A stretch of DNA of 64,000 nt from Rickettsiales bacterium (GTDB taxonomy: Bacteria; Pseudomonadota; Alphaproteobacteria; Rickettsiales; UBA1997). Location: positions 66,710-130,709 of the forward strand of contig JAYORG010000001.1 in assembly GCA_038123275.1 (NCBI GenBank), in the 5' to 3' direction. The stretch's first letter is position 1. Each line of letters opens with the position of its first letter. The position numbers were made by a program, and so were the translations under genes. The notes under the pieces are model-generated. The model saw only the letters and a list, made by a program, of their open reading frames with translations, made no database searches and had not been told where the DNA came from. Shown one piece after another: positions 19,943-56,387 of the stretch.

Positions 19943-21673
19943 ATGGACATCAATCTAAAAAAGCATAAAGAAGACCTATTATTTGCGCCCTTAGGAGGTG
20001 CAAGTGAAATTGGCATGAATGTAAATCTGTATCATTTAGATGGCAAGTGGTTAATGATTGATCTAGGTCTTGGCTTTGCTAATGGCGTGCCAGGAATTGA
20101 TATGTTAGCTCCCGATATTTCCTTTATTAAAGCACAAAAGAAAAATCTAGTTGGCCTTGTAATAACCCACATTCATGAAGATCATTTAGGATCAGTTCAA
20201 TATTTATGGGAAGAGTTGGAAGTTCCAATTTATACATCAAAATTAACGGCTAATTTTTTGCGTGCCAAGTTAGAAGAATATCCATTTGCTCGCAATGTTA
20301 AAATAAATGAAATTAACCCAGATAAAGAGTTAGAATTAGGGCCTTTTAAAATGAAGTTTATTGGCCTAACTCACTCTGTTCCAGAAATGAATGCTCTTTT
20401 AATTAAGACAAGACATGGTAATGTATTTCATAGTGGTGACTGGAAGTTTGATGATAATCCGGTTGTTGGCAAGGTATCAGAAAAAGAAAAAATTAAATCT
20501 TATGGTGATAAAGGTGAAGTTTTAGCATTAGTTTGTGACTCAACTAATTCTATGAGCCCTGGAAGATCAAAGTCAGAAGGAGATTTACATAAAAGTCTAA
20601 AAGAGTTGATTATTAAAGAAAAACAAAAAGTTGCAGTAACAACTTTTGCTTCTAATTTAGCTAGAATACAAACTATTAGCCAAGTAGCAGCCGAGTGTGG
20701 TAGAAAAGTAATATTAGCTGGTTTTTCTCTTAGACGATTAATGGAAGTTGGTAAAAAATCAGGTTATTTTAAAGATCTTCCAGATTTTATTTCCGACAAA
20801 GAAATCAGCCTTTATAAACCTCATGAAATTTTAGTTATTTCAACTGGTTGCCAAGGTGAAGAGTTAGCTTCAACTATGAAACTTGCTACTGATAATCATC
20901 GTTTTATTAAATTTGGTGAGGGTGATACGGTTATTTTCTCTTCTAAAATTATTCCAGGAAATGAGAAAAGCATCTTTAACTTATTTAATCTTTTTGCTAA
21001 AAAAAGAGTTAATATTCTTACAGAAAAGGATCATTTTGTTCATGTTTCAGGACATCCTAATCAAGATGAATTAAAGGAAATGTATGAATTAGCACAACCA
21101 AAAATTGCTATTCCTGTTCATGGTGAATTTGTTCATATTAGGCAGCATTGTGAAATAGCTAGAGAAGCTGGCACTAAAAAGGTAGTAGAAGTATCTAACG
21201 GAGCTGTTGTTTGCTTAAATGAAAAAGACAGTAAAATAGTTGGTTTTGTACCAACTGGATATTTTGGTGTTGATGGTAAACAATTAGTGCCAATTAATGG
21301 TGATATAGTTAAAGCAAGACGCAAACTTTCCTATGCTGGAGTTGTTACGGTTTGTGTGACTGTTAATAAACAAGGTACATTATTAGATCCAATAGAGGTT
21401 TTATCTTTAGGTGCTTACGACTTTAAAGCTGATGATTTAGCCCTTGAAATGCTAGAAAGAGAGCTTGAAAGGCTAGTTAAATCTACTGCTAAAGATATGG
21501 GTTTAGATAAAAAACAAGGTAAGTTTTTTGGTAAGAAGGGTAATAAGAAGATGGCGTCCAAAGATAAAATTTCCCACACCATGGATAAAAATATCAGAAC
21601 CACTCTCAATAAATTTTTTAGAGATCTTTTGGGTAAAAAGCCAGTATTACAAGTTATTGTCAAAGTGGTTTAG
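19943..21673 (+). CDS. rnj: Ribonuclease J
   Basis: Metallo-beta-lactamase ITHIHEDHLG motif, beta-CASP region and ~575 aa length. ATG at 19943 is preferred to TTG at 19937. Confidence 0.9.
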   Translation: MDINLKKHKEDLLFAPLGGASEIGMNVNLYHLDGKWLMIDLGLGFANGVPGIDMLAPDISFIKAQKKNLVGLVITHIHEDHLGSVQYLWEELEVPIYTSKLTANFLRAKLEEYPFARNVKINEINPDKELELGPFKMKFIGLTHSVPEMNALLIKTRHGNVFHSGDWKFDDNPVVGKVSEKEKIKSYGDKGEVLALVCDSTNSMSPGRSKSEGDLHKSLKELIIKEKQKVAVTTFASNLARIQTISQVAAECGRKVILAGFSLRRLMEVGKKSGYFKDLPDFISDKEISLYKPHEILVISTGCQGEELASTMKLATDNHRFIKFGEGDTVIFSSKIIPGNEKSIFNLFNLFAKKRVNILTEKDHFVHVSGHPNQDELKEMYELAQPKIAIPVHGEFVHIRQHCEIAREAGTKKVVEVSNGAVVCLNEKDSKIVGFVPTGYFGVDGKQLVPINGDIVKARRKLSYAGVVTVCVTVNKQGTLLDPIEVLSLGAYDFKADDLALEMLERELERLVKSTAKDMGLDKKQGKFFGKKGNKKMASKDKISHTMDKNIRTTLNKFFRDLLGKKPVLQVIVKVV

Positions 21674-36235: not shown

Positions 36236-37285
36236 TCAGGAGAATTTTTCTGGAAATAAATCTTCGTTTAATTTAAATAATTCAGATATTTCTATTGTAG
36301 AATTTTCAATTTTTATTTTGTCCAAAATGACAATTCCAACTTCTTCTAAATCAATATTTTGTGATTTTGCTAGATTTTTAACTTCATCTAAATTTTCTTT
36401 TTGAGTGCTAATTACATACCTTGCTTGATCTTCTCCAAAGAAATAATTTTCTGATTCAATATTGTGATTAGTTTTAATTTGCGCGCCAAGATTTTTATTA
36501 AACATCTCAAAAATAGCAATTAACAAGCCACCATCACTAACATCATGACAAGCATTTATTTTTTTGGATGTAATTAATTTTCTAATAAGCTCAGAATTTT
36601 TTCTCTCACTTTCTAAATTAATTTTTGGCGGATTAGATTTATTCTCTATCCTCAAAATATCCCTTTGAAATATTGAGCAATCTAAATGTCCTTTTGTTTC
36701 TCCAACAACCAAAATTACATCTCCCTCATTTTTTAATTTTGTATTACATCTTAAATTTAAATCTTTTAACAAACCAACGCCTCCAATAGTTGGAGTTGGC
36801 AAAATAGCTTGACCATTTGTTTCATTGTAAAGAGAAACATTTCCAGAAACTACAGGATAATTTAGTGCCTTACAAGCTTCATTAATACCTTTAATAGCTT
36901 TAACAATTTGCCCCATAATTTCTGGTTTTTCTGGGTTGCCAAAATTTAAGCAGTTAGTAATTGCTTTTGGCGTTGCGCCAACGGCCGAGATATTACGATA
37001 AGTTTCAACAACAGCTTGCATTCCTCCAATAAAAGGATCAGCTAGTACATATCTTGGCGTGCAATCAGAAGTGGTAGCCAAAGCTTTATTGGTACCACGA
37101 ACTCTAGTTATTGCAGCATCTCCTGTAATTTCAATAGTATCATTCATTACCTGACTATCATATTGCTCATAAATCCACCTCTTTGAAGCTAAGTTAGGGT
37201 TTTGTACTAACTCTTTTAAGTTTTCTAATATTGTATTTGTCATATTATTTTGGTCTTTTTCTAAATTTTGTTTCATTATTTCCAC
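36236..37285 (-). CDS. purL: Phosphoribosylformylglycinamidine synthase II (PurL), C-terminal half
   Basis: [15 protein letters not shown] onward. GTG start overlaps the stop of the N-terminal half by 10 nt. Confidence 0.85.
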
Positions 37286-38415
37286 TCCCTATCATATTCT
37301 GGTGAATTTTCAGATAAATCTTCGCTTGGAATTTGTGCATAAATTTTACCATCCATTTTAATAACTACCTTTCCAGTATCAGTTACACTACCAATTACAG
37401 CAAAGTCTAAACCCCAGCGGTCAAAAACTTCTTTGGCAAAAACCTCTTTTTCTGGTTTTATCACCATTAACATTCTTTCTTGGCTTTCTGATAACATAAT
37501 TTCATAAGGAGTCATATTTTCTTCTCTTTGTGGAACTTTCTCTAAGTTTAACTCAACTCCAGTTCTACCTTTTCCGGACATTTCAAAGCTAGAAGAAGTT
37601 AAGCCAGCAGCTCCCATATCTTGAATTGATAAAATAGCATCACTTTGCATTAATTCTAAGCAGGCTTCTAATAATAACTTTTCAGTAAATGGATCTCCAA
37701 CTTGTACTGTTGGTCTTTTATCTTCATCACCTTCTTTAAATTCATCCGAGGCCATAACGGCACCATTAATACCATCTCGACCAGTTTTAGAACCAACATA
37801 AACTACCGATGCCCCAACTTCACTGGCAGCTGAATAAAATATTTTATTCTTATCAGCAATGCCAACTGTCATGGCATTAACCAAGATATTACCATTGTAA
37901 CTTTTGTCAAAATTTACTTCACCGCCAACCGTTGGAACTCCAATACAGTTGCCATATCCACCAATTCCACTAACTACCCCGTTAACTAAATGTTTAGTTT
38001 TTTTATGATCAATTTCACCAAATCTAAGTGCATTTAAGTTTGCAACTGGTCTGGCACCCATGGTAAATACATCTCTTAAAATTCCACCAACACCAGTGGC
38101 AGCACCTTGATATGGTTCAATAAAAGAAGGGTGATTATGACTTTCCATTTTAAAAATTGCCGCCTGACCATCGCCAATATCAATAATTCCAGCATTTTCA
38201 CCAGGGCCACAAATAACCCAGGGCTCTCTGGTATGCATGGTTTTAAGCCATTTTTTAGTAGATTTATAAGAGCAATGCTCACTCCACATTGCACTAAATA
38301 AGCCAAGTTCAGTAAATGTAGGGACTCTACCTAGTATTTCTAGAATTTTTTCATATTCTGACTCGCTTAAATTATGTTCTTCAACTAATTTTTTAGTAAT
38401 TTCTGGTTCACTCAT
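37276..38415 (-). CDS. purL: Phosphoribosylformylglycinamidine synthase II (PurL), N-terminal half
   Basis: [20 protein letters not shown] and GGILRDV motifs. Ends ...PEYDREWK just at the inter-domain linker. Confidence 0.85.
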
Positions 38416-41492: not shown

Positions 41493-42833
41493 TTACAGTG
41501 ATTCTTGAATTTTTTTAGCAATTTTATTAGCAACTTCTTTAATTTTCTTTTGATCTTCACCTTCAACCATTACTCTAACTAATTTTTCTGTTCCAGATTT
41601 ACGTACAAAAACCCTGCCATTCGTCAAATTTCCCTCTTCATTTTTAATAAGATCTAAAATATCTTTATTTTCCAAAGGATCTTTACCATCAAATTTAACA
41701 TTTACTAAAATTTGAGGCATTAATTCAAAAATATTAGCAATTTGGCTAATAGGTTTATTTCCTTCACAAATTGATGATAAAATTTGCAAAGCTGCAATTA
41801 AGCCATCACCTGTTGTAGAGTAATCTCCAAGAACCAAATGACCAGATTGTTCTCCACCAAAATTACATTTATTTTTCTTCATTGCTTCCAAAACATAGCG
41901 ATCGCCAACTTGTGTTCTAATGGTAGAAATTCCCATATAAGAAAGGTAATTTTCTAAAGCTAAATTTGACATTTGGGTAATAGCTACAGTATCTCTTTTT
42001 AGTTTTCCTTCTTGGTGTAGTTTTTCAGCAATTAAGGCAATTAAAATATCTCCTGGAATTTCATTGCCTTTTTCATCAATAACAAGCAAGCGATCAGCAT
42101 CGCCATCAAGAGCTATTCCAATATCAGCCTTTTGTTCAATTACGGTTTTTTTAATTAATTCAGGGTTGGTAGATCCACAATTCTTATTAATATTAAAACC
42201 ATTTGGATTATTGCCAATTTCAATTACTTGCGCTCCTAATTCCCATAATATTGTGCCAGCAATTGAGTAAGCTGCTCCATTGGCACTATCAACTACAATT
42301 TTTAAATTATTTAAGCTTTTATCTTTAGGAAAAGTATTTTTTACAAATTCTATATATCTTCCACGTGGATTTTCTAGCCTTGTTACCTTGCCAAGATTAG
42401 AAGCTTTAGCATAAAATTGCGACATATCTTGATCTAGCATTTCTTCAATTTCCTTTTCAATCTTATCATTTAGCTTGTGGCCATTTTTATCAAAAATTTT
42501 AATACCATTATCAGTGTATGGGTTATGTGATGCTGAAATCATAATGCCAATGTCAGCACGCAAAGATCTTGTTATCATAGAAACAGCAGGAGTTGGAACT
42601 GGTCCAACCAAAAATACATCCATACCAGCAGCAGCAAATCCAGCGGTTAAAGCTGGCTCAATAACATATCCTGAAATACGAGTATCTTTACCAATAACAA
42701 CACGATGACGATGATCACCATCAGTAAATTTCTTACCAACTACCATGCCAACTTTTAAGGCAATTTCAGGAGTCATTGGAAACTGATTAGCAGTTCCCCT
42801 TATGCCATCTGTTCCAAAATATTTTTTTGTCAT
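41493..42833 (-). CDS. glmM: Phosphoglucosamine mutase
   Basis: YFGTDGIRG, SASHNPYTDNGIK, DGDADR and GGEQSGH motifs. Confidence 0.95.
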   Translation of the reverse strand: MTKKYFGTDGIRGTANQFPMTPEIALKVGMVVGKKFTDGDHRHRVVIGKDTRISGYVIEPALTAGFAAAGMDVFLVGPVPTPAVSMITRSLRADIGIMISASHNPYTDNGIKIFDKNGHKLNDKIEKEIEEMLDQDMSQFYAKASNLGKVTRLENPRGRYIEFVKNTFPKDKSLNNLKIVVDSANGAAYSIAGTILWELGAQVIEIGNNPNGFNINKNCGSTNPELIKKTVIEQKADIGIALDGDADRLLVIDEKGNEIPGDILIALIAEKLHQEGKLKRDTVAITQMSNLALENYLSYMGISTIRTQVGDRYVLEAMKKNKCNFGGEQSGHLVLGDYSTTGDGLIAALQILSSICEGNKPISQIANIFELMPQILVNVKFDGKDPLENKDILDLIKNEEGNLTNGRVFVRKSGTEKLVRVMVEGEDQKKIKEVANKIAKKIQESL

Positions 42834-42983: not shown

Positions 42984-44960
42984 TTAAGATAATAATTGAG
43001 TTTTTAAAACTTCAATTGCATTCTTAATTCCATCTTTATTATTTCCACCACCAAACGCAAGATCTGGTTTTCCGCCACCACCTTTACCACCAATATTTTC
43101 TACTATTACAGGGATTAATTTACCAGCATTAAATTTTAAACATAAATCCTGGCTAATTGCTATGGCAACTGCAACTTTACCTTCAAGGCTACTAAAAAAG
43201 CAAATTATTGTATTTTCATTATTTTCTTTTTTAGATTTAATTTGCGTAATTGCATCTCTTAAATCTTTAGCATTTGTATCTTCAAAATAATGGTGAATTA
43301 AATTAATGTTATTAATTTTCTCATTTTCAAAATCTGTAGATAAGCTAAGTTGTTCCTTTTTCTTTTTTTCTATTTCTTTATTAACTTTTTTTAGTTTTTC
43401 TTGAAGATTTAAAATTTGTAAATCAAATTCTTTTATCTTTTTCCTAAATTCATCAATCTTTCCAATATCATCATTATTTTCAAATGTTTTTAAGGGTGGG
43501 TCAAACTCTATTTCAAAGCCGCTAATGTTACCTTCTTGACATTTTTGAATTAATCTATCTCGTAATTCAAACCATTTATTGTTAAGTTTAGTTAAGTTAT
43601 CTTCCATATCCTTAATAGCTGATATACTGGTTTTAGCTGTAATTCTTCTAATTCCCGCAGCTATTGATTTTTCAGAAATAATTTTAAAACATTCAATATC
43701 ACCTAAATTTTCAACATGAGTTCCACCACAAAATTCAACTGATAAATATTTATTATTTTTATCTTTTCCCATACTTAAAACTCTTACAACTTCACCATAT
43801 TTTTCACCAAATAAAGCAACTGCCCCTTTCTTTTTTGCTTCTTCTAATCTTATTGTTTCAACTGTCGTGTTGGTTTTTTGGGTAATTAATTGATTAACCT
43901 CATCTTCAATTCTTTCTAGGTCAGATTCTAGGATTTTTTCATTATGGTTAAAGTCAAAAGTAAAAGAATTATTAGCAACATCAGAACCTTTTTGAGTTAG
44001 CTGTTTACCAAAATTTTTTCTTAAAATATAATGTAATAAATGTGTTGCACTATGAGCCCTCTTTTTGCCTGACCTTCTATTTACTTGTGCTTCAATCTCA
44101 TCTCCAACTTTAAATTCTCCTTGGATTTTACTAACTATATGAACAAATAACTTTTCAGCTTTTTTTACCGTTTCCTTAATCTCAATTATATCTTTTGATG
44201 AACTTTGTATTTGCCCTTCATCACCTCTTTGCCCACCAGAAGTTGCATAAAATGGAGTTTGATTAAGAATAATCTCAACATTTTTGTCACCTTCTTTAAT
44301 ATTTCCAACTTCTTTGCCATCCTTAATAATTGCTATAATATTTGCGCTAACTCCTTCATTGTCTTTGGCTTCATATATTAAATTTGTATCAGTTACTCCA
44401 AGCTTTTCTTTTAAATTAAAATAAATTGAATCATCAGCTATACTACCACTACCTGACCAATTTTTTCTTGCTCTATCTCTTTGTTTTTGCATTTCATTTT
44501 CAAAGCTAGAAATATTAACTTCAATATTTCTTTCTTTTAAAATGGTTTGAGTTAAATCCAGTGGAAATCCATAAGTGTCATAAAGTTTAAAAGCAGTTTG
44601 GCCATTAAATTTATTATTTTTAATGTTTTTTGATTCTTTTTCCAAAACTTCAATACCTTTAGCTAGGTTTTTTCTAAATCTTTCTTCTTCAATTTTTAAA
44701 CTATTGATAATTAAATCTTGAGCTTCCTTTAATTCAGGAAAAGCATCCGACATTTTATTAACTAAAGTTGGCACTAATTTATAGATAAAGGCTTCTTTTT
44801 CGTTTAATTTATGAGAATGTAACATGGCTCTTCTCATTATTCTTCTTAAAACATATCCCCTGCCTTCATTGCTTGGAAGTATGCCATCAGCTATTAAAAA
44901 GGCACTTGAGCGTAAGTGATCGGCGATAACTTTATAAGATGAGTTGATTTTATTATTCAC
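42984..44960 (-). CDS. alaS: Alanyl-tRNA synthetase, C-terminal fragment (tRNA-recognition, editing and C-Ala domains)
   Basis: Begins (GTG) NNKINSSYKVIADHLRSSAFLIADGILPSNEGRGYVLRRIMRRA. Contains the editing motif HSATHLLH, CGGTHV and GGKGGGGKPDLAFGGG. Confidence 0.9.
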   Translation of the reverse strand: MNNKINSSYKVIADHLRSSAFLIADGILPSNEGRGYVLRRIMRRAMLHSHKLNEKEAFIYKLVPTLVNKMSDAFPELKEAQDLIINSLKIEEERFRKNLAKGIEVLEKESKNIKNNKFNGQTAFKLYDTYGFPLDLTQTILKERNIEVNISSFENEMQKQRDRARKNWSGSGSIADDSIYFNLKEKLGVTDTNLIYEAKDNEGVSANIIAIIKDGKEVGNIKEGDKNVEIILNQTPFYATSGGQRGDEGQIQSSSKDIIEIKETVKKAEKLFVHIVSKIQGEFKVGDEIEAQVNRRSGKKRAHSATHLLHYILRKNFGKQLTQKGSDVANNSFTFDFNHNEKILESDLERIEDEVNQLITQKTNTTVETIRLEEAKKKGAVALFGEKYGEVVRVLSMGKDKNNKYLSVEFCGGTHVENLGDIECFKIISEKSIAAGIRRITAKTSISAIKDMEDNLTKLNNKWFELRDRLIQKCQEGNISGFEIEFDPPLKTFENNDDIGKIDEFRKKIKEFDLQILNLQEKLKKVNKEIEKKKKEQLSLSTDFENEKINNINLIHHYFEDTNAKDLRDAITQIKSKKENNENTIICFFSSLEGKVAVAIAISQDLCLKFNAGKLIPVIVENIGGKGGGGKPDLAFGGGNNKDGIKNAIEVLKTQLLS

Positions 44961-45019
44961 TTTCGTTATTTTTAGGTGCTTTAATTCAGTTCTTAACTGT
45001 TTAATTTATAAAACATAAA

Positions 45020-45313
45020 ATGATAAATCTCAATCCTTTCATTAATCTTATTTCTTCGATTCTATCAATTTATTCATTTTGTTTAATTGCATATGTAGTT
45101 TTGCATTATTTATTTTTGTTCAAAATAATTAATCCCTACAATCAATTTGTGCAACAAGTACATCGTTTTTTAATAAGAATTTTTGAGCCAGTTTTATCAA
45201 AAATCAGAAATCATGTTCCAAATATTCACGGTATTGATATTTCAGTTCTTATTTTATTTTTAGGGATCTACTTTGTTAGGGATATTTTATACACTTATTT
45301 TTATGTTTATTAA
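45020..45313 (+). CDS. YggT family membrane protein
   Basis: ~97 aa with two hydrophobic segments and a YggT-like layout. Confidence 0.7.
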   Translation: MINLNPFINLISSILSIYSFCLIAYVVLHYLFLFKIINPYNQFVQQVHRFLIRIFEPVLSKIRNHVPNIHGIDISVLILFLGIYFVRDILYTYFYVY

Positions 45314-45327
45314 TAGAGTCTGAATTC

Positions 45328-47505
45328 ATGACAAAAAAGGGAAAAACTTTTCATTATACATCATTAGCTATAAATCTTTTGGAGAAATTAATTAATCCAA
45401 AGTTTAATGTTGATGGTGTTGAAAAGATACCTCAAAAGCCGGTTTTATTTGTTGCTAACCATTTTACTCGTTTTGAAACCTTTATTATTCCTTATATAAT
45501 TCATAAATATACTCATCGTCAAGTTAGGTGTTTGGCTGATAGTGGTTTGTTTAAAGGAGGATTCGGAGATTTTCTAACAAATGTTGGAACATTATCAACC
45601 ACAGACCCAGATAGGAATAAGACTATAATTTCAGATTTAATGTCAGGAGATTATGATTGGATGATATATCCTGAGGGTGCTATGGTCAAGAGCAAAGAGA
45701 TTTATTCTAAAGGTGGCTTTATTTCCCATACTCCTTATGGAGTTAGTCGAGCTAAAACAGGAGCCACAGTCCTGGCATTAAAATCAGAACTTTATCGCCA
45801 AGAGTTAATAAGGGCAAAAAAAGAAAATAATCAAGAAATTATCGATTTTTACGAAAAATCCTATGATGTTAAATATAAGGATAGGTTAAAAGAGGTGGAT
45901 ACTCATATTGTTCCAATAAATATTACCTATTATCCAATTAGGCCTGGAGAAAATATTATTAAAAAAGTTGCTCAAAGTGTATTAAAAAGATTGCCAAGAA
46001 AAATTGCTGAAGAATTAGAAATTGAAGGAAATCTTATTTTATCAGCAAATATTAATGTAAGTTTTGGTGAGGCTATTAGAGTTGCTGATTATAGTAGAAA
46101 GGCACGTAGTTTAGTTAGGAAAATCCCTTTAATGAAAAATAAATCTAAAAGTAACTTAGTAATTAGCTATTTAAAATATCGCCTTACTAGTAAAATCATG
46201 GAAGAAATTTATTTTGATACCAAGATTAATTTAGATCATTTATTTACGGCAGTACTTTTTAAATATAAAGAAGAGTCAATTAGCATTAACCATTTGAAAA
46301 ATATTATATACTCTGCTGCTGTTAATATCCAAAAGACCAATAAATACCGCCTGAGCCATTCTATTTTGGAGCATAACTTAATTAAAATTTTTAATGACGA
46401 ACCTCATAAAGAATTAGATGGAGTTATTGCATTGGCTAAATCTTTAAAAATTGTTAAGGAAAGTGCTGATGGTCAATTTTTAGTGATTAATAAATCAAAA
46501 ATAAATCAAAAACACGATTTTCATGATATTAGAAAGGAAAATACCTTACAGGTAATATTTAATGAGTTTGCTTTACTTAAAACTGCAAATTTAGCAGTAA
46601 AAAGAAGTATGATAATGAGTGACATTAAGTTAAAAAAGGAAGTTTTTCAGAAAATTCTTAAAGCAGATATTCAAAATTTCCTAAAGGATTATCACGATTA
46701 TTACGATGATAACTTATCTAAACAAGCAGAGATTGGGTCACCATTTTTTTTAAATAGTAATAGTAAAAATAAAGATGTTGGTATTGTTTTATGTCATGGC
46801 TATCAATCAGCTCCAGAAGAAGTTAGGCAATTAGCTATTCATTTAAACGGATTAGGTTTTAGAGTTTATGCGGTGCGTCTTAAAGGTCATGGAACATCAC
46901 CTCAAAATATACAAGATGTTTCCTATCATGACTGGTATAATGATATAAGCAGAGGATATAGTGCCCTTAGTAGAATATGTTCTAAAATAATAATAATTGG
47001 TTTTTCAACTGGCGGTTTATTATCATTATTATCCTGCGCCAAAAAGCCACAAAATAGTATTTTTGCAGTTATCACTATTAATGCTGCTTTAAAATTACAA
47101 GACATTAGGGCTAGATATATAGTGCCAGGAATTACTATTTGGAATGATTTACTAAATAAGTTTAAAATCAAGAAAGCCACTTTAGAATATATTGAAAATA
47201 ATTCTGAGAATCCATTAGTTAATTACCCTAGAAACTATTTATCTGGAGTTGGAGAGCTTGGCAAATTAATGAGTGAATGTTCTAGTAATTTAAGCAAGGT
47301 AAGTAATCCAGCATTAATAATTTACTCTAAAAATGATCCAATAGTAAAGCCAGATAGTAGTAAAATTATTCAAAAAGAAATTAAGTCTGATATTAAAGAG
47401 TTAAAAGAATTTGATATGGATAATCATATTATTATTTTTGGAGATAATAACAAAAAAGTTTTCGATGTTATTGAAAAGTTTATCTTTAAATTACTTGCAA
47501 GTTAG
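45328..47505 (+). CDS. Fusion protein: LPLAT/PlsC-like acyltransferase + alpha/beta-hydrolase (lipase/esterase)
   Basis: VANHFTRFET and IYPEGAMVKSK (acyltransferase blocks I and III) in the N-terminal part. VLCHGYQS...GFSTGG (GxSxG) in the C-terminal part. Confidence 0.75.
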   Translation: MTKKGKTFHYTSLAINLLEKLINPKFNVDGVEKIPQKPVLFVANHFTRFETFIIPYIIHKYTHRQVRCLADSGLFKGGFGDFLTNVGTLSTTDPDRNKTIISDLMSGDYDWMIYPEGAMVKSKEIYSKGGFISHTPYGVSRAKTGATVLALKSELYRQELIRAKKENNQEIIDFYEKSYDVKYKDRLKEVDTHIVPINITYYPIRPGENIIKKVAQSVLKRLPRKIAEELEIEGNLILSANINVSFGEAIRVADYSRKARSLVRKIPLMKNKSKSNLVISYLKYRLTSKIMEEIYFDTKINLDHLFTAVLFKYKEESISINHLKNIIYSAAVNIQKTNKYRLSHSILEHNLIKIFNDEPHKELDGVIALAKSLKIVKESADGQFLVINKSKINQKHDFHDIRKENTLQVIFNEFALLKTANLAVKRSMIMSDIKLKKEVFQKILKADIQNFLKDYHDYYDDNLSKQAEIGSPFFLNSNSKNKDVGIVLCHGYQSAPEEVRQLAIHLNGLGFRVYAVRLKGHGTSPQNIQDVSYHDWYNDISRGYSALSRICSKIIIIGFSTGGLLSLLSCAKKPQNSIFAVITINAALKLQDIRARYIVPGITIWNDLLNKFKIKKATLEYIENNSENPLVNYPRNYLSGVGELGKLMSECSSNLSKVSNPALIIYSKNDPIVKPDSSKIIQKEIKSDIKELKEFDMDNHIIIFGDNNKKVFDVIEKFIFKLLAS

Positions 47506-47726
47506 ATCAAAATAAAATACTCATGATAATTCCCGTAAAGAAAAACTTATTTGAGCCTGGTCCTGTTAGTAGCTCTAGTAATTTAAATTTACTAGATGTA
47601 GATTTCTTAGTTAATTTTGTATAAGTTCTATTTTAGTAAAGATTAAGTAAATAATATTGAAATAATAATATTTCTAGATACTATTAGCAGCAAATTAAGC
47701 AATTTAATTATATAATTTTATATTTC

Positions 47727-49214
47727 ATGAAGGATGAAAATAATATAAAAGATAAGGAAATAGAAGCTGAAGCTGAAGTCGAAGAAGAAGATTACGAAGA
47801 AGAAGAATACGACTATGATGATGATTCGGTAGATGCTGGGGGGCCTGATGTTGCTAGTGGAAAAGGTAGTAAAATGACTCTTATTGCTTTTTCAGCAGTA
47901 TTAATGGCTGTTGTATTTTATTTTCTATTTTTTAAAGGCAGTGAACAATCATCAGATGGCGATAATTTAGATTTAGTAACACCAGATTCCGATTTTTCAA
48001 GTGAGACACCCGCCGATGCAACAGATTTAGAAGATTTTGACTCCATTTTTGGTAAAACTGTAGAAGATACACGTGAAGATGTAATATTAGAAACTCCTGA
48101 TATTCCATCCATTCCACAATTACCTGATGTATTTGAAAATGATGCTTCAGATGATATTTTACCAGCTTTTTTAGATTTACCTAAAGAGCAACAACAATTT
48201 GACAGTAAAGGTCGTCCAATAACGCCTGGTCTTTCAGGGTCATCTCAATTGGACTTTGCTGATGGTTTGTTGCCACAAAATTTAGTTGCTGGCTCTATTG
48301 ACCAATCTGGCCTAGGTGTTTTGCCTGGACAGCAGGTTGTTCCAGGAGCTCCTGGCCTACCCAATCCTGCAGGAGTTCCAGGCGCTCCAGGGGTGCCAAG
48401 TGCTGCTGGTGTTTCTCCTGGAGGTGTTGTTGATCCTCAGCTTAATACCATGACACCTTCTTCAATTATTGTTGTTGCTGGAGCTCCAGGGCCAACCAAT
48501 AGTATTGGCTATGAAAATAATATTATTAATTTAAATAAAGATCCAATTGCAGATTTAGAAGTTACAGCTCCACAAATAACCTCACAATATATTAGCGATA
48601 GAACAACAACTTTAATACAGGGTAAAATTATAACAGCAGTTTTAGAAACAGCAATTAATACAGAGTTTCCCGGTGAGGTCAGAGGTATTATTAGTAGACA
48701 TGTTTATGCAGAGTCTGGTAATAATATTTTGATACCAAGAGGATCAAGAATTTATGGATCATATTCTAGTACAGTTATCAGAGGTCAGGCTCGAGTAACA
48801 ATTAGTTGGAGTAGATTAATTAGGCCAGATGGTGTTGATGCTTCAGTTTCGCTAAATGCTTCTGATCAATTTGGTAGAGCTGGAATTCAAGGTGACGTAG
48901 ATAATAAATATGGGTCGATTATCACTAATTCTATTTTAACCAGTGTTTTAGCTGTTGGTGGTGCTATTGCTGCTGAAAAATTAGCAGAAGATGCTAGTTC
49001 TACAACTACAACAGATCCAACCACTGGTACAAGTACAACTACTGGAAGTGCTTCTGCTCAGGCAATTGCAGATGTTAGTGAAACTATTATTGATACTGTT
49101 GGTACAATTGCTACTAATGCCATTAATGTAGATCCTGTTATTAGGGTACCACAGGGAACAAAAATAACTATTGTAGTAAACAGCGACATGAGTCTGCCAG
49201 AATTCAAAAATTAG
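47727..49214 (+). CDS. virB10: Type IV secretion system protein VirB10/TrbI
   Basis: Acidic N-terminus, one TM helix, a Pro-rich linker (PGAPGLPNPAGVPGAPGVP) and a TrbI-type C-terminus (GKIITAVLETAINTEFPG..RIYGSY..RVTISWSRLIRPDG..GIQGDVDN). Confidence 0.85.
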   Translation: MKDENNIKDKEIEAEAEVEEEDYEEEEYDYDDDSVDAGGPDVASGKGSKMTLIAFSAVLMAVVFYFLFFKGSEQSSDGDNLDLVTPDSDFSSETPADATDLEDFDSIFGKTVEDTREDVILETPDIPSIPQLPDVFENDASDDILPAFLDLPKEQQQFDSKGRPITPGLSGSSQLDFADGLLPQNLVAGSIDQSGLGVLPGQQVVPGAPGLPNPAGVPGAPGVPSAAGVSPGGVVDPQLNTMTPSSIIVVAGAPGPTNSIGYENNIINLNKDPIADLEVTAPQITSQYISDRTTTLIQGKIITAVLETAINTEFPGEVRGIISRHVYAESGNNILIPRGSRIYGSYSSTVIRGQARVTISWSRLIRPDGVDASVSLNASDQFGRAGIQGDVDNKYGSIITNSILTSVLAVGGAIAAEKLAEDASSTTTTDPTTGTSTTTGSASAQAIADVSETIIDTVGTIATNAINVDPVIRVPQGTKITIVVNSDMSLPEFKN

Positions 49215-49236
49215 GGTTTAAATTCGATTCTACTTC

Positions 49237-49322
49237 GATATTTCAACGAAAATGATTGATACAAAATTCATTTACCAAAAAGTAAATTAAAATTTTCTAT
49301 CAATCATTTTCGTTGAAATATC
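49237..49322. repeat. Perfect 25-bp inverted repeat with a 36-nt loop
   Basis: gatatttcaacgaaaatgattgata (49237-49261) and its exact reverse complement at 49298-49322. Confidence 0.7.
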
Positions 49323-49390
49323 TTTGTATAATTAGATTTAAACCTTACTTTACTTTTACCAAGAGGGAAAATATTCTTAACAAGAATTAT

Positions 49391-50215
49391 ATGACAAAGA
49401 AAATAAATTTACATTTAATATCAGACTCAACAGGAGAAACTCTTAGTTCAGTTTCAAGGGCTGTTTTATCTCAATTTGAGGATGTAGAATCAAATGATTT
49501 TGTATGGCCATTAGTTAGAACTCAGTCACAAATTGATAAGGTTATAGAATCAATCTCTAAAAATCCTGGAGTAGTTTTATATACCATATTAGAAGATAAT
49601 TTGGTCAATAATCTAAAAAATCATTGTTATAAACTACAAATTCCTTGTATTCCAGTGCTATCAAGAATTGTCACTGAATTTTCCAATTATCTAGGTGTAA
49701 ATGTTAATAATTCTATTGGTCGTCAGCATATTCTAGATGAAGAATATTTTTCTCGAGTAGAGGCAATAAATTATACTATTAATCATGATGATGGACAATC
49801 AAGTTGGGATTTATATGATGCTGATATAGTTATTATTGGAGTCTCTAGAACCTCTAAGTCACCAACAAGTGTTTACTTGTCTTGTCGAGGCTACAAAGCA
49901 GCAAATATTCCATTTGTTACTATTGAAACAATGCCAGATAATCTTGCAGATCTAAAAAAACCATTCATTGTTGGTTTTACTATTAACCCAGAAAAGTTAA
50001 TACAAATTAGAAAAAATAGAATGCTATCTTTGGGTCAAGAATTAAAAACGGATTATATTGATCTAGATGTTATTAAGAAAGAGGTATCTGAGTCTAGGAA
50101 GTTGTTTTCAAAACTTAATTGTAAAGTAATAGATGTCACTAAGAGGTCTGTAGAAGAGACTGCTGCTAAAATAATACAACTTCATCAAGCACATATAAAA
50201 TCCCTAGATAAATAA
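49391..50215 (+). CDS. Pyruvate phosphate dikinase / PEP synthetase regulatory protein (DUF299)
   Basis: INLHLISDSTGET, IGVSRTSKSPTS and the typical ~275 aa length. ATG at 49391 is preferred to TTG at 49313. Confidence 0.9.
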   Translation: MTKKINLHLISDSTGETLSSVSRAVLSQFEDVESNDFVWPLVRTQSQIDKVIESISKNPGVVLYTILEDNLVNNLKNHCYKLQIPCIPVLSRIVTEFSNYLGVNVNNSIGRQHILDEEYFSRVEAINYTINHDDGQSSWDLYDADIVIIGVSRTSKSPTSVYLSCRGYKAANIPFVTIETMPDNLADLKKPFIVGFTINPEKLIQIRKNRMLSLGQELKTDYIDLDVIKKEVSESRKLFSKLNCKVIDVTKRSVEETAAKIIQLHQAHIKSLDK

Positions 50216-50223
50216 AAAAGCTT

Positions 50224-50338
50224 TATAAAGACCTTTACACAACTAAAATCAGTTAATTTACACCAAAAATAGAGAAAAATTGAACGATTTTTAATAAAAA
50301 AACACATTAAAATTTTAGTTGTGTAAAGGTCTTTTATA
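50224..50338. repeat. ~26-bp inverted repeat with a 62-nt loop
   Basis: tataaagacctttacacaactaaaat (50224-50249) pairs with attttagttgtgtaaaggtcttttata (50312-50338), with one extra t. Confidence 0.6.
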
Positions 50339-50466
50339 GTCAATAGATTAGGCCTTCTTAGTACTTTAGTATATTTTTTATTAGAAAAAACTTTAATTTT
50401 CTAATAAGAAAATTAATATACTATGTAGCTTAATTATAATTTTAAAACTAAAAACGTAATTTAACT

Positions 50467-51942
50467 GTGAGTAGAAATATATTAATTGTTGATGATGAGC
50501 CAGTTCAGGCCAAGATGCTCGGTAAATTTATTAAAGACATGAGTCATAATATTATGATCATGAATGATGGAAAAGAAGTTGTGGATTTTTTCTTAGAGAA
50601 AAAAAATAACATTAATCACCTAATGCCGTATGATATTGATGTTATGCTTTTAGATCTTTTAATGCCTCATATGAGTGGATTAGAGGTTTTAAAACAAATT
50701 TCTGCTGTTAGAGGTGATCTACAAGTAATAGTTTTAACTGCAACAAATGATATTTCTTTAGCTATAAATGCTATTAATTTAGGTGCAGTTGATTATATAG
50801 TTAAAGGTGAAAAAGATGTATTTGCCCGTGTTATTGCCTCAATTAATAATGCTGTTGAAAAAAGAAACCTTAAATATCAAGTTTATAATCTAGAAAGAAA
50901 GAGCAAGGATCAAGTTATTTTCTCAGACATAATTGGTAGAGATAGAAATTTGCTTGAATCTATTAATTTAGCAAAAAAAGTTACTAATTCTGCGGTTCCA
51001 GTGTTAATTGAGGGGCAAAGTGGCACGGGAAAAGAATTATTCGCTCGTGCTATTCATGGTTCAGGAATTAGATCAGGTAGACCATTCATTGCAGTGGATT
51101 GTGCTGGTTTAAGATCTAGTAATGCTTCAGAAGTTTTATTTGGCTATGAAAAAAAATCTGATGATGGTTTAGTTGAAAGAAGTATCGGAAAGGTTAGGGA
51201 AGCAACTGATGGAACTTTATTTTTAAATAATATCAGTGAGCTAAAATTAGATGTTCAGGTAAAATTACTAAGATTTTTACAAGAAGGTCAGTTTCAGCCA
51301 AATGGTTCTAAAACAATTTATAAGAGTAGTGCTAGAATAATATCATCTTCTTATCAAGATTTAACGGCGTTAGTTAAGAAAAAGAAGTTTAGAGAAGATC
51401 TTTTCTATCGTTTGAACATTTTTCCAATCAGATTACCTTCTTTAATGGATAGAGGGCCAGAGGATATTCAGTTACTATCTGAAAGTTTTTGTTATAATTC
51501 TAGTGTTAATGAAAATAAAAAAATTAAAGGTATTAGCGATAATGCCATGAAGCTTTTAATAACATATGAATGGGAAGATAACGTAAGACAGTTAAAAAAT
51601 TATATTTTTAGAGCGGTTGTTTTATGTGATGATGAATATCTAGAAACAAGGCATTTCCCACAAATTATGATGATAGATAATCAGCCAATTTCTGTTTCAA
51701 AATTATCAGCAATTATTAAAAAACCACGTACAAAAGATAGTGAGATGTTCGATATTTTTGATGAAGATGGTCAATGTAAAAGTTTAGAAGACATTGAGTA
51801 TGAAGTTGTACAAAGGTTGCACCAACTTTATGAAGGTAATTTATCAGAAATTTCTAAGCAATTAAAAGTTAGTAGGTCAACAATTTATAGAAAACTAGAT
51901 TTAGTTAACAAAAATCCAGAACAGGATGAAGCAGAAGGCTAA
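50467..51942 (+). CDS. NtrX/NtrC-family response regulator (REC + degenerate AAA+ + Fis-type HTH)
   Basis: ILIVDDEP..LLDLLMP (REC), GQSGTGKE (Walker A), FREDLFYRLN and SRSTIYRKL (HTH). GAFTGA is absent and Walker B DE is replaced by NN (TLFLNNISEL). Confidence 0.85.
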   Translation: MSRNILIVDDEPVQAKMLGKFIKDMSHNIMIMNDGKEVVDFFLEKKNNINHLMPYDIDVMLLDLLMPHMSGLEVLKQISAVRGDLQVIVLTATNDISLAINAINLGAVDYIVKGEKDVFARVIASINNAVEKRNLKYQVYNLERKSKDQVIFSDIIGRDRNLLESINLAKKVTNSAVPVLIEGQSGTGKELFARAIHGSGIRSGRPFIAVDCAGLRSSNASEVLFGYEKKSDDGLVERSIGKVREATDGTLFLNNISELKLDVQVKLLRFLQEGQFQPNGSKTIYKSSARIISSSYQDLTALVKKKKFREDLFYRLNIFPIRLPSLMDRGPEDIQLLSESFCYNSSVNENKKIKGISDNAMKLLITYEWEDNVRQLKNYIFRAVVLCDDEYLETRHFPQIMMIDNQPISVSKLSAIIKKPRTKDSEMFDIFDEDGQCKSLEDIEYEVVQRLHQLYEGNLSEISKQLKVSRSTIYRKLDLVNKNPEQDEAEG

Positions 51943-52819
51943 TAATAAAATTATTAGAAAAGCAGTTTTCCCAGTTGGAGGGCTTGGCACTAGGTTTTTG
52001 CCAGCAACTAAATCTATGCCAAAGGAAATGCTTCCAGTTGTTAATAAGCCAATAATTCAATATGCATTTGAGGAAGCTAAAAAAGCTGGAATAGAAGAAT
52101 TTATCTTTGTAACTGGTAGAAATAAAAATGCCATTAATAATCATTTTGATCATGCTTATGAGCTGGAATCAGCTTTAGACCAGAAGCAAAAATCACAAGA
52201 ATTAAAAAACATTATAGGATGGCTTCCTGATGCTGGGCAAATTGCTTTTGTGCGTCAGCAAAAGCCACTTGGCCTTGGACATGCAATATGGTGTGCTCGC
52301 AATTTTATTGGAGACGAGCCATTTGTAGTTATTTTAGCTGATGAGATAATTTTAGATAAAAATAATTTTCTAAAGTCAATGATGGATCTTTATAGTAATA
52401 GTTCTAATAAGGCAAGTATTGTTGCGGTCAATGAGGTACAAAAAGAAGATGTTCATAAATATGGTATTGTCGATATTGATGAAAATAATAGAATAAAAGA
52501 TATGGTTGAAAAGCCATCACTCAAAGATGCCCCTTCAAATTTGGCAATTAATGGACGTTATATTTTGCAGCCAGATATTTTTAAATATTTAGAAGCTGGA
52601 AAAATAGGAAGTGGTGGCGAAATTCAATTAACTGATGCCATGAAAGAAATGTCAAAAGATTTTCCAATCTATGCAAAAAAATATGAAGGAACTCGTTTTG
52701 ATTGTGGAAGTGTTTTAGGCTATATAGAAGCTAATATTGTTCACAGCCTAGAGGATAAAAATTTAAGAAACAAATTAATACCATTACTTAAAAAATATTT
52801 AAATGATTATGACAAATAA
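51926..52819 (+). CDS. galU: UTP-glucose-1-phosphate uridylyltransferase
   Basis: KAVFPVGGLGTRFLPATKSMPKEMLPVVNKPIIQY. Confidence 0.9.
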   Translation: MKQKANNKIIRKAVFPVGGLGTRFLPATKSMPKEMLPVVNKPIIQYAFEEAKKAGIEEFIFVTGRNKNAINNHFDHAYELESALDQKQKSQELKNIIGWLPDAGQIAFVRQQKPLGLGHAIWCARNFIGDEPFVVILADEIILDKNNFLKSMMDLYSNSSNKASIVAVNEVQKEDVHKYGIVDIDENNRIKDMVEKPSLKDAPSNLAINGRYILQPDIFKYLEAGKIGSGGEIQLTDAMKEMSKDFPIYAKKYEGTRFDCGSVLGYIEANIVHSLEDKNLRNKLIPLLKKYLNDYDK

Positions 52820-53753
52820 TACAGCATTAGTTTTTCCAGGACAAGGTTCACAAAAAATTGGCATGGGAAAAGATTTATATGATAATTTTGCAGTTGCTAA
52901 ACAAGTTTTCCAAACGGTAGACGATATATTAAAAGTTAATCTATCAAAAATAATATTTGAAGGTCCCGGTGAGGATTTAATGGCAACACAAAATACTCAA
53001 CCAGCGTTAATGGCAGTTTCTATTGCTATTGTTAGAGTTTTAGAAGAGGAGTTTGGTAAAAAAATAACAGATCTAGGATCCTTAGTGGCAGGTCATTCTT
53101 TAGGAGAATATTCAGCTTTATGTGCTGCTGGTGCTATTTCTTTAGAGGATACAGCAAAATTATTACAAGTTAGAGGTAATGCAATGGCTGATTGTGGCAA
53201 AAAGACACAAGGAGCAATGGCAGCAATTATTGGGTCACAGCTAGGATTAGTCGAAGATATTACTAACTTAGCAGCAAGTAGTGGAGAAATTTGTCAAATT
53301 GCCAATGATAATTCAGTTGGTCAAATAGTTATTAGTGGTTCAAAAGCAGCCATTGATGAAGCAATTGAAATTGCCAAAGAAAAAGGTGTTAAAAGAGCTT
53401 TACCACTTCCAGTTAGCGGTGCTTTTCACTCTAAATTAATGCAAGATGCTGCGATTCAAATGAAAGAAGCTCTAGATAATACTGATATTAAGAAGCCTAT
53501 TTTACCATTAATTGCCAATGTTACGGCTAAAAAAGTTACAAATCCAAGTGAAATAAAAGATTTATTAGTTAAGCAAATAACTGGTTCTGTAAGATGGAGA
53601 GAAACAATGTTATCAATGGAAGAGTTAGGAATTAAGGAGATAATTGAAATTGGATCAGGTAAAGTTTTATCTGGTTTAGTATCCAGAACTTGCCAAGATG
53701 TTAGCTCCAAGTCAGTTCAAAATTTTGAAGATGTTAAGGTTAATTTTGGTTAA
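52803..53753 (+). CDS. fabD: Malonyl CoA-ACP transacylase
   Basis: FPGQGSQKIGMG, GHSLGEYSAL and FHSKLM motifs. Confidence 0.95.
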   Translation: MIMTNNTALVFPGQGSQKIGMGKDLYDNFAVAKQVFQTVDDILKVNLSKIIFEGPGEDLMATQNTQPALMAVSIAIVRVLEEEFGKKITDLGSLVAGHSLGEYSALCAAGAISLEDTAKLLQVRGNAMADCGKKTQGAMAAIIGSQLGLVEDITNLAASSGEICQIANDNSVGQIVISGSKAAIDEAIEIAKEKGVKRALPLPVSGAFHSKLMQDAAIQMKEALDNTDIKKPILPLIANVTAKKVTNPSEIKDLLVKQITGSVRWRETMLSMEELGIKEIIEIGSGKVLSGLVSRTCQDVSSKSVQNFEDVKVNFG

Positions 53754-53756
53754 ATT

Positions 53757-54545
53757 TTAATTATTTGATGATTTCTCAATATCTTTAATAATTTTCTCAA
53801 AGATATCAGTTTCATAATTATCAGTTTTACCTTGAATAACGCTGGCAATTCTTTCTAGCCCCATTCCTGTATCAATGCATGGTTTTGGTAAATTATTCAT
53901 ATTACCTTTCTCGTCTTTTTCAAATTGCATAAAGACTAAATTCCATATTTCAACAAACCTGTCTCCATCTTCATCTTTACTTCCTGGAGGTCCTCCTTGA
54001 ACTTTATCACCATAATCATAGAAAATTTCGCTACAAGGGCCACAAGGGCCAGTTTTACCCATGGACCAAAAGTTGTCATGGGTTTTAATTTGAATTATTT
54101 TATCTTCTTTAAAGCCAGCAATTTTTTGCCATAACTTGGAAGACTCAAAGTCTTCATGATAAACAGTAATTAATAATTTATCTTGTGGTAGTGCTAATTC
54201 TTTATTCAAAAATTGCCAAGCATAATAAATAGCTTCTTCTTTAAAATAATCACCAAAAGAAAAGTTACCAAGCATTTCAAAGAAGGTGTGATGCCGAGCA
54301 GTAAAGCCAACATTATCAAGATCATTATGTTTTCCTCCAGCTCTAACACATTTTTGGGAGGTGGCAACACGTTTAAATTCTGGTTTTTCTAATCCGGTAA
54401 AATAGTTTTTAAAAGGCACCATTCCAGCATTAACAAACATTAATGTTGGGTCTTTATGTGGAATTAGAGGGGAAGAAGGTAAAATATGGTGGTCATTATT
54501 TTTAAAATAATCTAAAAATTTTTCTCTTATTTGATTTGTTAACAT
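53757..54545 (-). CDS. alaS: Alanyl-tRNA synthetase, N-terminal fragment (class II catalytic core only)
   Basis: [59 protein letters not shown] and [12 protein letters not shown], then a stop after ...[11 protein letters not shown] at 54545 is preferred to TTG at 54566. Confidence 0.9.
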
Positions 54546-54782: not shown

Positions 54783-56387
54783 ATGCAAAATAATTTACAA
54801 GATATTTACAAAAATAGCAATTCATGGCCTTTTATTGAAGCTAAGAGAATTTTAAAGAAGATTAACAATCAAACTCCCAAGAAGGGATTTGTTTTATTTG
54901 AAACAGGATATGGACCATCTGGTTTACCACATATCGGTACTTTTGGTGAAGTTGTTAGAACAAGCTTCGTTAAAAAAGCATTTGAATTATTAGCACCATC
55001 TATTCCAACAAAATTAATTTGCATTTCCGATGATATTGATGGCTTAAGAAAAGTTCCAGAAAATTTGCCTAATCAAGAATTGATCACAGCAAATTTAGGA
55101 AAACCTTTAACCAGTGTTCCTGATCCTTATGGTACTCATGATTCCTTTGGGGATCATATGAATAATCGTTTACAAGGTTTTCTTGATTCATTTGGTTTTG
55201 AGTATGAATTTATTAGCGCTGCCAAAAAATATAAGAATGGAGATTTTGATGATACAATGCTCAAAGTATTGGAAAAATATGATGAAATAATGGCTGTAAT
55301 GCTTCCAACTTTGGGTAGTGAAAGGCAAAAAACCTATTCTCCTTTCATGCCAATCGACATTAATTCTGGCATTGTCATTGATAAAGGTGTAATTGGTGTT
55401 AATAAAGAACAAGGAACGGTTAAATATAAAGACCAAAATGGACAAGAAAAAGAAGTTCCAGTAACAGGAGGTAGTTGTAAATTACAGTGGAAAGTAGATT
55501 TTGGTGCACGTTGGTTTACCTTAGGAGTTGATTATGAGATTTATGGCAAAGATCACCAACCAAACGAGCATATCTATAAAAAAATATGTCAAATTCTTGG
55601 TGGCAAGCCGCCAGTAAACTTTACTTATGAGATGTTCTTAAGTGAAGATGGTTCTAAAATATCTAAATCAGCAGGTAATGGAATTTCTGTGGAAGATTGG
55701 TTAAAATATGCCCCATCAGAGTCAATGTCTCTTTACATGTATCAAAAACCAAAAACTGCTAAAAGACTACATTTTGATGTAATTCCAAAAGCTATGGACG
55801 AATATTTAGCATTTTTAGGATCATATCCTAACCAAGAGCCAAATAAACAAATTGAAAACCCAGCCTTTCATGTTCATTTTGGTGATGTGCCCAAGTTAGA
55901 ATTTTCTGGCTTAAGCTATTCTTTATTACTTAATTTAGCCAGTGCTTGCAACCCAGAAAATGATGATATTTTATGGGGTTTTATTAACAAATATCAATCT
56001 GGTTTAAATAAAGAAAACTCACCTCTTTTAGCTAAAATGGTATACAGAGCCATTGCTTATTACAATGATTTTATTAAAGCTAATAAAAAATATCGTAGTC
56101 CAAATGAGAATGAAGCCAAAGCTTTACTTGAATTAAAAGAAGTGTTACTAGGTTTAGATGAGAATTTAGAAGCAAAAGAAATTCAAAATGAAATTTTTGC
56201 AATTGGCAGAAAATATGGCTATGAACAAAATATGAAAGATTGGTTTTCTGCTCTTTATCAAATTCTAATGGGTCAAGAAACAGGGCCAAGAATGGGTTCT
56301 TTTGCTGCTCTTTATGGCACTAAAAACTTCGCCTTGATGATTGGCGAATTATTTAAACAATTATCTCAACAAGAAAAAACTGTATAA
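54783..56387 (+). CDS. lysK: Class I lysyl-tRNA synthetase
   Basis: GYGPSGLPHIGTFGE (HIGH-like) and KISKSAGNG (KMSKS-like); ~530 aa. Confidence 0.9.
   Translation: MQNNLQDIYKNSNSWPFIEAKRILKKINNQTPKKGFVLFETGYGPSGLPHIGTFGEVVRTSFVKKAFELLAPSIPTKLICISDDIDGLRKVPENLPNQELITANLGKPLTSVPDPYGTHDSFGDHMNNRLQGFLDSFGFEYEFISAAKKYKNGDFDDTMLKVLEKYDEIMAVMLPTLGSERQKTYSPFMPIDINSGIVIDKGVIGVNKEQGTVKYKDQNGQEKEVPVTGGSCKLQWKVDFGARWFTLGVDYEIYGKDHQPNEHIYKKICQILGGKPPVNFTYEMFLSEDGSKISKSAGNGISVEDWLKYAPSESMSLYMYQKPKTAKRLHFDVIPKAMDEYLAFLGSYPNQEPNKQIENPAFHVHFGDVPKLEFSGLSYSLLLNLASACNPENDDILWGFINKYQSGLNKENSPLLAKMVYRAIAYYNDFIKANKKYRSPNENEAKALLELKEVLLGLDENLEAKEIQNEIFAIGRKYGYEQNMKDWFSALYQILMGQETGPRMGSFAALYGTKNFALMIGELFKQLSQQEKTV

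Follow-up and report, generated by a model that had tools for sequence, protein, structure and literature searches.

Alanyl-tRNA synthetase is encoded by two separate genes

The window analysed here is a 64-kb stretch (64,000 nucleotides) of contig JAYORG010000001.1 from the Rickettsiales bacterium assembly GCA_038123275.1, and the system in question is its alanyl-tRNA synthetase (AlaRS, encoded by alaS). A single-chain AlaRS carries all four domains on one polypeptide. In the window we identified these domains on two open reading frames (ORFs) that lie 8.8 kb apart, here called alaS-N and alaS-C (Table 1). The first-pass annotation, made from the DNA letters and ORF translations, had described the shorter ORF as a complete class II catalytic core and the longer one as recognition and editing domains plus C-Ala, and profile searches bear out both descriptions. 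alaS-N matches positions 1-259 of the 552-position Pfam model tRNA-synt_2c (PF01411; E 2e-119), and alaS-C matches positions 265-550 of the same model. Similarly, alaS-N covers positions 1-248 of the 847 in TIGR00344, the bacterial alaS model (388.5 bits, under the 457-bit equivalog cutoff), and alaS-C covers positions 266-847 (501.5 bits, over the cutoff). alaS-C also matches tRNA_SAD (PF07973; E 8e-15) and DHHA1 (PF02272, C-Ala; E 2e-10), and both halves have AlaRS domains exclusively as Pfam matches. Scores against the archaeal model TIGR03683 are 90 bits (N) and 273 bits (C), compared with 388 and 501 bits against the bacterial one.

The two pieces tile the enzyme. When aligned to the E. 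coli AlaRS structure 3HXU, alaS-N residues 3-258 correspond to residues 4-268 and alaS-C residues 6-166 to residues 277-437. Aligned jointly with 40 full-length AlaRS of Alphaproteobacteria (876-899 residues), alaS-N ends at column 306 and alaS-C begins at column 308. The termini thus abut, and no part of AlaRS is duplicated or missing. alaS-C contains the recognition motifs SNEGRGY (at residue 30) and YDTYGFP (127), the editing motifs HSATH (303) and CGGTH (411), and the C-Ala motif GGKGGGG (624). From the alignment offset it follows that Asn303 and Asp400 (E. coli numbering), which read the G3:U70 base pair (PMC11392972), should lie within SNEGRGY and YDTYGFP, respectively.

Neither half has internal stops or frameshifts. 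Homologues favour the ATG at 54545 as the start of alaS-N over a TTG at 54566, and the GTG start of alaS-C is backed by several homologues that open with MNNKINSSYK... from an ATG. The stop codons of alaS-N and fabD are separated by 3 nucleotides (nt), and the gap 5' of the alaS-C GTG is 59 nt.

The window proteins were found on a 239-kb NCBI contig. The first-pass annotation had advised verifying both junctions, and both are reproduced in the independent Logan assembly of read set SRR26337545. One of its contigs (L081) spans the alaS-N/fabD/galU/ntrX junction and another (L088) spans the acyltransferase/yggT/alaS-C/glmM junction, with translations identical to the window proteins.

Table 1. 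Position and content of the two alaS genes and of conserved neighbouring genes in the window.
Feature	Position	Strand	Description
alaS-N (proposed AlaRS alpha)	53757..54545	-	262 aa, ATG start; the class II aminoacylation domain in full, with motifs 1-3, and a helix after it (residues 247-261)
alaS-C (proposed AlaRS beta)	42984..44960	-	658 aa, GTG start; tRNA-recognition, editing, coiled coil, C-Ala
Seven-gene intervening block	45020..53753	+	yggT, acyltransferase/alpha-beta hydrolase fusion, VirB10-domain protein, ppsR (PDRP), ntrX-like sigma-54 regulator, galU, fabD; not part of the enzyme
Class I lysyl-tRNA synthetase (lysK)	54783..56387	+	NF001968, 785.8 bits; divergent from alaS-N here, conserved neighbour
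glmM	41493..42833	-	TIGR01455, 579.9 bits; conserved downstream neighbour of alaS-C

The cut falls between two predicted helices at a domain border

AlphaFold2 gives a confident model for either protein by itself. The alaS-N model has a predicted template modelling score (pTM) of 0.82 and ends in a helix at residues 247-261 with a predicted local distance difference test score (pLDDT) near 90. The alaS-C model (mean pLDDT 83.4) has its first helix at residues 7-24 and long helices at residues 445-476 and 498-539. Foldseek aligns the alaS-N model to AlaRS catalytic fragments with query TM-scores (TMq) of 0.81-0.84, reaching 0.84 for 3HXU. The cut is predicted to lie in a loop of about seven residues between helix 247-261 of the N piece and helix 7-24 of the C piece, near E. 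coli residue 270. This is close to where we take the border between the catalytic and recognition domains of AlaRS to be. Because the cut is in an inter-helix loop, each product should be a complete folding unit.

The same split occurs throughout a diverse lineage

We compared each half with its best 120 database matches; the sequence clusters number at least 120 per half. The best 120 homologues of alaS-N are 259-307 residues long (70-87% identity) and none is full length, and the best 120 of alaS-C are 585-703 residues long (44-100% identity), none being near the approximately 880 residues of a normal AlaRS. The N pieces all stop at, or a few residues from, the same alignment column, right after the helix NYExDxFxxLIxxI, and the N-termini of the C pieces lie 3-12 residues ahead of the motif (Y/L/F)K(V/I)IADHLRS. 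In a library of 1.84 billion cluster-representative proteins, the top matches of alaS-C are C-only proteins in which the alignment starts at residues 1-7, and the closest full-length AlaRS has 44% identity. The first-pass annotation had known of no bacterial split and had proposed looking for it in related genomes. Relatives do have it, at one conserved cut position in at least 120 clusters per half, and the split is therefore no singularity but characterises a deep, diverse lineage of uncultured bacteria.

Residues characteristic of functional AlaRS are kept in both pieces. Among alignment columns that are invariant in the 40 full-length enzymes, the window proteins retain 114 of 119 in the N piece (96%) and 105 of 118 in the C piece (89%), and the split-clade means are 96% and 92%, respectively. 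HSATH, CGGTH and GGKGGGG show no variation within the split clade. Non-synonymous (dN) and synonymous (dS) divergence was estimated by the Nei-Gojobori method for close pairs. alaS-N and its counterpart in L083 give dN 0.12 and dS 1.34 (dN/dS ~0.09), and alaS-C and its counterpart in L091 give dN 0.24 and dS 0.98 (dN/dS ~0.24); synonymous sites are saturated in more distant pairs. Both halves are under purifying selection.

Neighbour-joining trees, built separately for N and C, each part the split sequences cleanly from the full-length ones, with the former in a single clade for both halves. Members of this clade differ from one another (0.39 for C, 0.20 for N) as much as the sequences sampled from several alphaproteobacterial orders do (Sphingomonadales, Rhizobiales, Caulobacterales and others). 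The N domains of the split sequences are 65-73% identical to those of alphaproteobacterial AlaRS and are placed beside them, and Holosporales is the label on one of the nearest full-length clusters. The relatives carry the submitter labels Rickettsiales, Rickettsiaceae, Alphaproteobacteria or Proteobacteria bacterium. Their loci range from 31% to 44% G+C and derive from freshwater metagenome and other environmental assemblies. In a scan of genome contigs with alaS-N, 79 of the 80 loci among the matches listed were ordinary full-length alphaproteobacterial alaS, and only L001 was split. A pattern scan of metagenome contigs with alaS-C, using patterns that are very query-specific, returned seven distant full-length matches (33-38% identity).

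Five proteins of about 600-630 residues from more distant lineages (P0333, P0345, P0346, P0404 and P0408) have a methionine a few residues before (R/Q/M)(V/I/M)(I/M)ADH. These could be independent fissions at the same border, or equally gene-calling artefacts at frameshifts or contig ends.

The halves are dispersed in related genomes

As the first-pass annotation had reported, seven genes on the opposite strand separate the halves in the window; all seven are found on the plus strand, from yggT to fabD. The 8.8-kb same-strand layout does not extend to the relatives, in which the halves are separated by over 10 kb or are carried by different contigs. A search out to 10 kb from the C piece gave no N piece in L089, L092 or L102-L105, and one out to 10 kb from the N piece gave no C piece in L001, L082, L083 or L086. 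In L092 the yggT-to-fabD block adjoins alaS-C and there is no alaS-N past fabD; in L083 it adjoins alaS-N, and additional genes totalling 3.8 kb intervene between fabD and alaS-N. Given this dispersal and the different surroundings of the block in L092 and L083, the layout that the first-pass annotation had described is an accident of local rearrangement, is not inherent in the system and has no mechanistic part.

Each half has recurrent neighbours. lysK adjoins alaS-N in the window and in L083-L087. In L086 the two are co-directional (lysK first) with a 1-nt gap and alaS-N overlaps the next gene, and in L082 alaS-N adjoins trpS. alaS-C is followed by glmM in the window, L088, L092 and L102-L105, and in L102-L105 it is preceded by the RNase J gene with a gap of 40-48 nt. 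The halves of relatives also occur in other operon-like contexts, with neighbours 1-50 nt away, which leaves no space for a missing part of AlaRS. Read set SRR35179664 yields both an N variant (P0130) and a C variant (P0200), on different contigs. P0200 is on a 767-kb contig of the metagenome-assembled genome GCA_021323225.1, P0130 is on a 333-kb JGI contig and has an NCBI accession, and they share the label 'Rickettsiaceae bacterium'. A single organism is their probable source. The nearest full-length relative (P0280) has the canonical recA-alaS arrangement and no synteny with the window, and so gives no clue to the origin of the fission.

Gene order elsewhere in the window also points to local rearrangement. 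At 12634..21673 the order aspS (minus strand), aminotransferase, coaX, ... RNase J matches the block upstream of alaS-C in L102-L105, where it reads aspS, virB3, aminotransferase, coaX, rnj, alaS-C, glmM. About 21 kb now separate RNase J from alaS-C and glmM in the window.

Alternative explanations for the two pieces

We consider it very probable that an ancient, fixed fission of bacterial alaS has yielded a two-subunit alanyl-tRNA synthetase. The functional two-piece AlaRS proposed in the first-pass annotation is strongly supported by the fixed cut, purifying selection, kept functional residues and the recovery of both junctions in an independent assembly, with the pieces presumably assembling in trans. 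Several points weigh against this interpretation. The case for expression, interaction and activity of the halves is indirect, being drawn from sequence, and scans for promoters and terminators at both genes gave counts equal to those in shuffled sequence (the DNA is AT-rich). A search for tRNA-Ala genes, aimed at their G3:U70 pair, came up empty both in the window and in 11 related loci. Our analysis covers 64 kb of this genome, and a foreign full-length alaS elsewhere is possible. Furthermore, the trees are simple neighbour-joining distance trees from a comparison set without classical Rickettsiales and Pelagibacterales (SAR11).

The pieces could both be functional without forming one enzyme. 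The C piece would then act in trans-editing or tRNA binding as a large AlaX-like factor, the N piece would form alanyl-adenylate (Ala-AMP) in some other role, and a separate full-length AlaRS would charge tRNAAla. Free-standing AlaX editing proteins do exist, alaS-C has a sub-threshold AlaXM match (96 bits against a 300-bit cutoff, residues 220-442 only), and the view of the genome is that of the 64-kb window. AlaX proteins, however, have an editing domain and no recognition domain, and alaS-C carries the recognition part of PF01411 (265-550) with the G3:U70 motifs, which would be useful only beside an active site. The N piece, for its part, keeps nearly all of the AlaRS-invariant residues, and both halves show the same bipartition of split and full-length sequences, as co-inherited partners would. 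The libraries contain no full-length homologue above 44% identity, and the contigs of 0.6-0.9 Mb suggest small genomes, which rarely keep redundant synthetases. We therefore regard this explanation as unlikely. Decay of alaS after a recent rearrangement, with an intact copy elsewhere, is in keeping with what is seen in Rickettsia genomes, where split genes are often pseudogene remnants, and here too 64 kb are in view. Such remnants would not be expected to share the same cut in at least 120 clusters per half, at identities as low as 70% (N) and 44% (C), nor to show dN/dS of 0.09-0.24 with synonymous sites saturated. The absence of stops and frameshifts and the kept functional residues also argue against it, and we consider decay very unlikely.

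It is extremely unlikely that the products are joined into a single chain by a split intein or a trans-splicing intron. Split inteins join the DnaE halves in cyanobacteria, so such a route has a precedent; however, a split intein would add about 100 and 35 residues, and the two termini, at adjacent columns, have no spare residues. In agreement with the first-pass annotation, which saw no intein, frameshift or internal stop, the termini abut, both ORFs are open, no intein-sized extension is present at either new terminus, and neither half has a non-AlaRS Pfam domain where intein halves would sit. There are 3 nt after the alaS-N stop and 59 nt before the alaS-C start, and Rfam has no match there; over the whole 64-kb window its sole match is a tRNA-Pro. 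An assembly or binning artefact, in which a chimeric contig joins unrelated pieces inside alaS, might be suspected given the metagenome-type source contig (239 kb). The probability of this is close to nil, as separate Logan contigs cross both junctions with identical proteins, and homologous half-genes sit mid-contig in long contigs produced by many projects and assemblers.

The first-pass annotation had also noted AlaRS-like codons upstream of the alaS-C GTG and had taken them as a hint of an overlapping duplication. The in-frame open stretch there is only 15 codons (IKQLRTELKHLKITK), and the regions 5' of alaS-C in the closest relatives (L091, L092 and L089) are unrelated to it. We rejected the idea of a relic of duplication on this lack of conservation. 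Moreover, no non-coding relic could have lasted, since synonymous sites are saturated. The likeness to AlaRS is best explained by chance in A+T-rich DNA.

A proposed alpha2beta2 alanyl-tRNA synthetase

Under the two-subunit interpretation, the alpha subunit (262 residues) would carry the aminoacylation site only, binding alanine and ATP and making Ala-AMP. The beta subunit (658 residues) would be responsible for all tRNA handling. Its helical recognition domain would read G3:U70 through the Asn/Asp pair, its editing site would clear Ser-tRNAAla and Gly-tRNAAla, and its coiled coil and C-Ala domain would bind the tRNA elbow and dimerise. Alpha and beta, presumably expressed independently from unlinked loci, could rejoin non-covalently via the native interdomain interface of the single-chain enzyme, to which the retained helix 247-261 may contribute. 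Dimerisation through beta would probably give an alpha2beta2 enzyme. Complex formation, stoichiometry, activity and the status of this enzyme as the sole AlaRS are what we infer. The conserved fission of bacterial alaS at a new position is real, and a heteromeric AlaRS is its most likely product.

Comparison with known split synthetases

AlaRS has been described as the only synthetase with one domain layout across life, N. equitans being the lone split exception (PMC10036535). In that archaeon the alpha (NEQ547) and beta (NEQ211) chains of AlaRS are encoded by unlinked genes, and the fission is common to Nanoarchaeota (PMC11392972, PMC4975002). The N. equitans alpha corresponds to E. coli 368N, so that the cut is inside the recognition domain and alpha keeps the Asn that reads G3:U70 (PMC11392972, PMC10036535). 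Alone, it charges weakly and without G3:U70 specificity, and alpha plus beta are fully active (PMC11392972, PMC10036535). Like Nanoarchaeota, the lineage described here conserves alaS as two separate genes. Unlike the archaeal-type N. equitans enzyme, its halves are bacterial-type, with TIGR00344 scores far above those for TIGR03683. The cut is near residue 270 rather than 368, about 100 residues earlier, which leaves all recognition elements on beta. Based on the different cut site and the bacterial type, the two fissions are independent events.

The closest parallel in architecture is the bacterial alpha2beta2 glycyl-tRNA synthetase (GlyRS; GlyQ/GlyS), which has a catalytic-only alpha (about 280-300 residues) and a large tRNA-handling beta. 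GlyQ is the next-best Foldseek match of alaS-N after AlaRS (TMq 0.41-0.48, 10-14% identity). Fused single-chain GlyRS forms of 924-978 residues are also among the PDB matches, thus both states exist for GlyRS. The present enzyme differs in amino-acid specificity and belongs to another family; what it shares with GlyRS is its architecture.

A bacterial precedent for a two-gene synthetase is the alpha-beta leucyl-tRNA synthetase (LeuRS) of Aquifex aeolicus, a normally single-chain enzyme that comes from two genes and works as a heterodimer (PMC3643597). It differs from the case described here in being a class I synthetase and in its split site, the leucine-specific insertion within the catalytic domain. 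To our knowledge, the Aquifex-type split is confined to one thermophile lineage. AlaRS domains behave as separable modules in the Tupanvirus mini-AlaRS, the C. elegans mitochondrial AlaRS and AlaX (PMC10036535, PMC8887476). Those are losses or stand-alone paralogues, whereas here nothing is lost and the catalytic domain is parted from the recognition domain. The split pheT of Altiarchaeales is a domain-border fission at non-adjacent loci that has been used as a clade synapomorphy (PMC4975002), although it concerns another enzyme, is archaeal and affects a subunit of an already heteromeric enzyme. We found no description of a bacterial split alaS in the full-text literature searched, including Rickettsiales comparative genomics, which is not proof of novelty.

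Other features of the window and related loci

A second gene in the window, purL, is also in two pieces (36236..38415, minus strand). A 379-residue ORF (37276..38415) matches positions 1-363 of the 723-position PurL profile and a 349-residue ORF (36236..37285) matches positions 377-713; they lie in different frames and share 10 nt. The distant relative L092 (16547..18727) also has purL as these two pieces, of 379 and 338 residues, which there share a frame and are separated by 24 nt. This has the look of another conserved fission in the lineage and not of a sequencing error.

Within the block between the alaS halves, the VirB10/TrbI-domain protein (47727..49214, plus strand) scores 165 bits, under the 220-bit cutoff, and has a long acidic Pro/Gly-rich N-terminal half. 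Its gene has no adjoining vir genes, lies inside the conserved yggT-fabD block and is also present in L083 and L092. A lone virB3 adjoins aspS in relatives (L102 and L104), indicating that type IV secretion genes are scattered over the genome. In the same block, the ppsR ORF (49313..50215, plus strand) is listed with a TTG start and 300 residues. Homologues have 270-277 residues and the profile match begins at residue 28; the true start is probably an internal ATG (MTKKINLHL...) about 26 codons downstream.

At 604..2982 (plus strand) the window encodes a 792-residue protein with a match to the Sushi/CCP repeat (E 3.5e-7), a domain typical of eukaryotes, and a weak sub-threshold match to TrbC/VirB2 pilin. 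It may be a host-interaction protein. A 710-residue protein with a faint leucine-rich repeat (LRR) match is encoded in L089. Neither Pfam nor NCBIfam gave a match, at the thresholds applied, for three further proteins of 826 (3042..5522, minus strand), 600 (18048..19850, plus strand) and 676 residues (32260..34290, plus strand). Type I-F CRISPR-associated genes (Csy3 and Csy4; L102/L103, 1..860) are present about 9 kb from alaS-C in a split-clade member from freshwater.

Implications for synthetase evolution and for the lineage

Taking these observations jointly, we lean towards the view that AlaRS in these bacteria is an obligate alpha2beta2 enzyme, with a bare-core alpha and all identity, editing and elbow-binding elements on beta, and that it would have arrived independently, in bacteria, at the GlyQ/GlyS organisation of its sister enzyme. 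On the same view, the fissions of alaS and purL together would mark, as a synapomorphy, a deep and uncultured clade that is affiliated with Rickettsiales and prone to gene fission. If this is true, the active site need not be covalently joined to the G3:U70 module in vivo, as seen in bacteria, at a different and cleaner border and across a diverse lineage. The organisms would also offer a natural test of what a bare catalytic core charges, notably of G3:U70-independent activity. Their alpha would be a natural minimal catalytic subunit with which to study how acceptor stems are recognised and how synthetases evolved, and the split itself would be a natural template for engineering AlaRS in two pieces.

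There are consequences for genome annotation as well. The N piece scores under the alaS cutoff and at least one NCBI N piece is named 'hypothetical protein', thus completeness and marker tools may miscount alaS in these genomes. As a rare genomic change, the alaS fission could serve as a phylogenetic marker for this poorly placed uncultured alphaproteobacterial clade.

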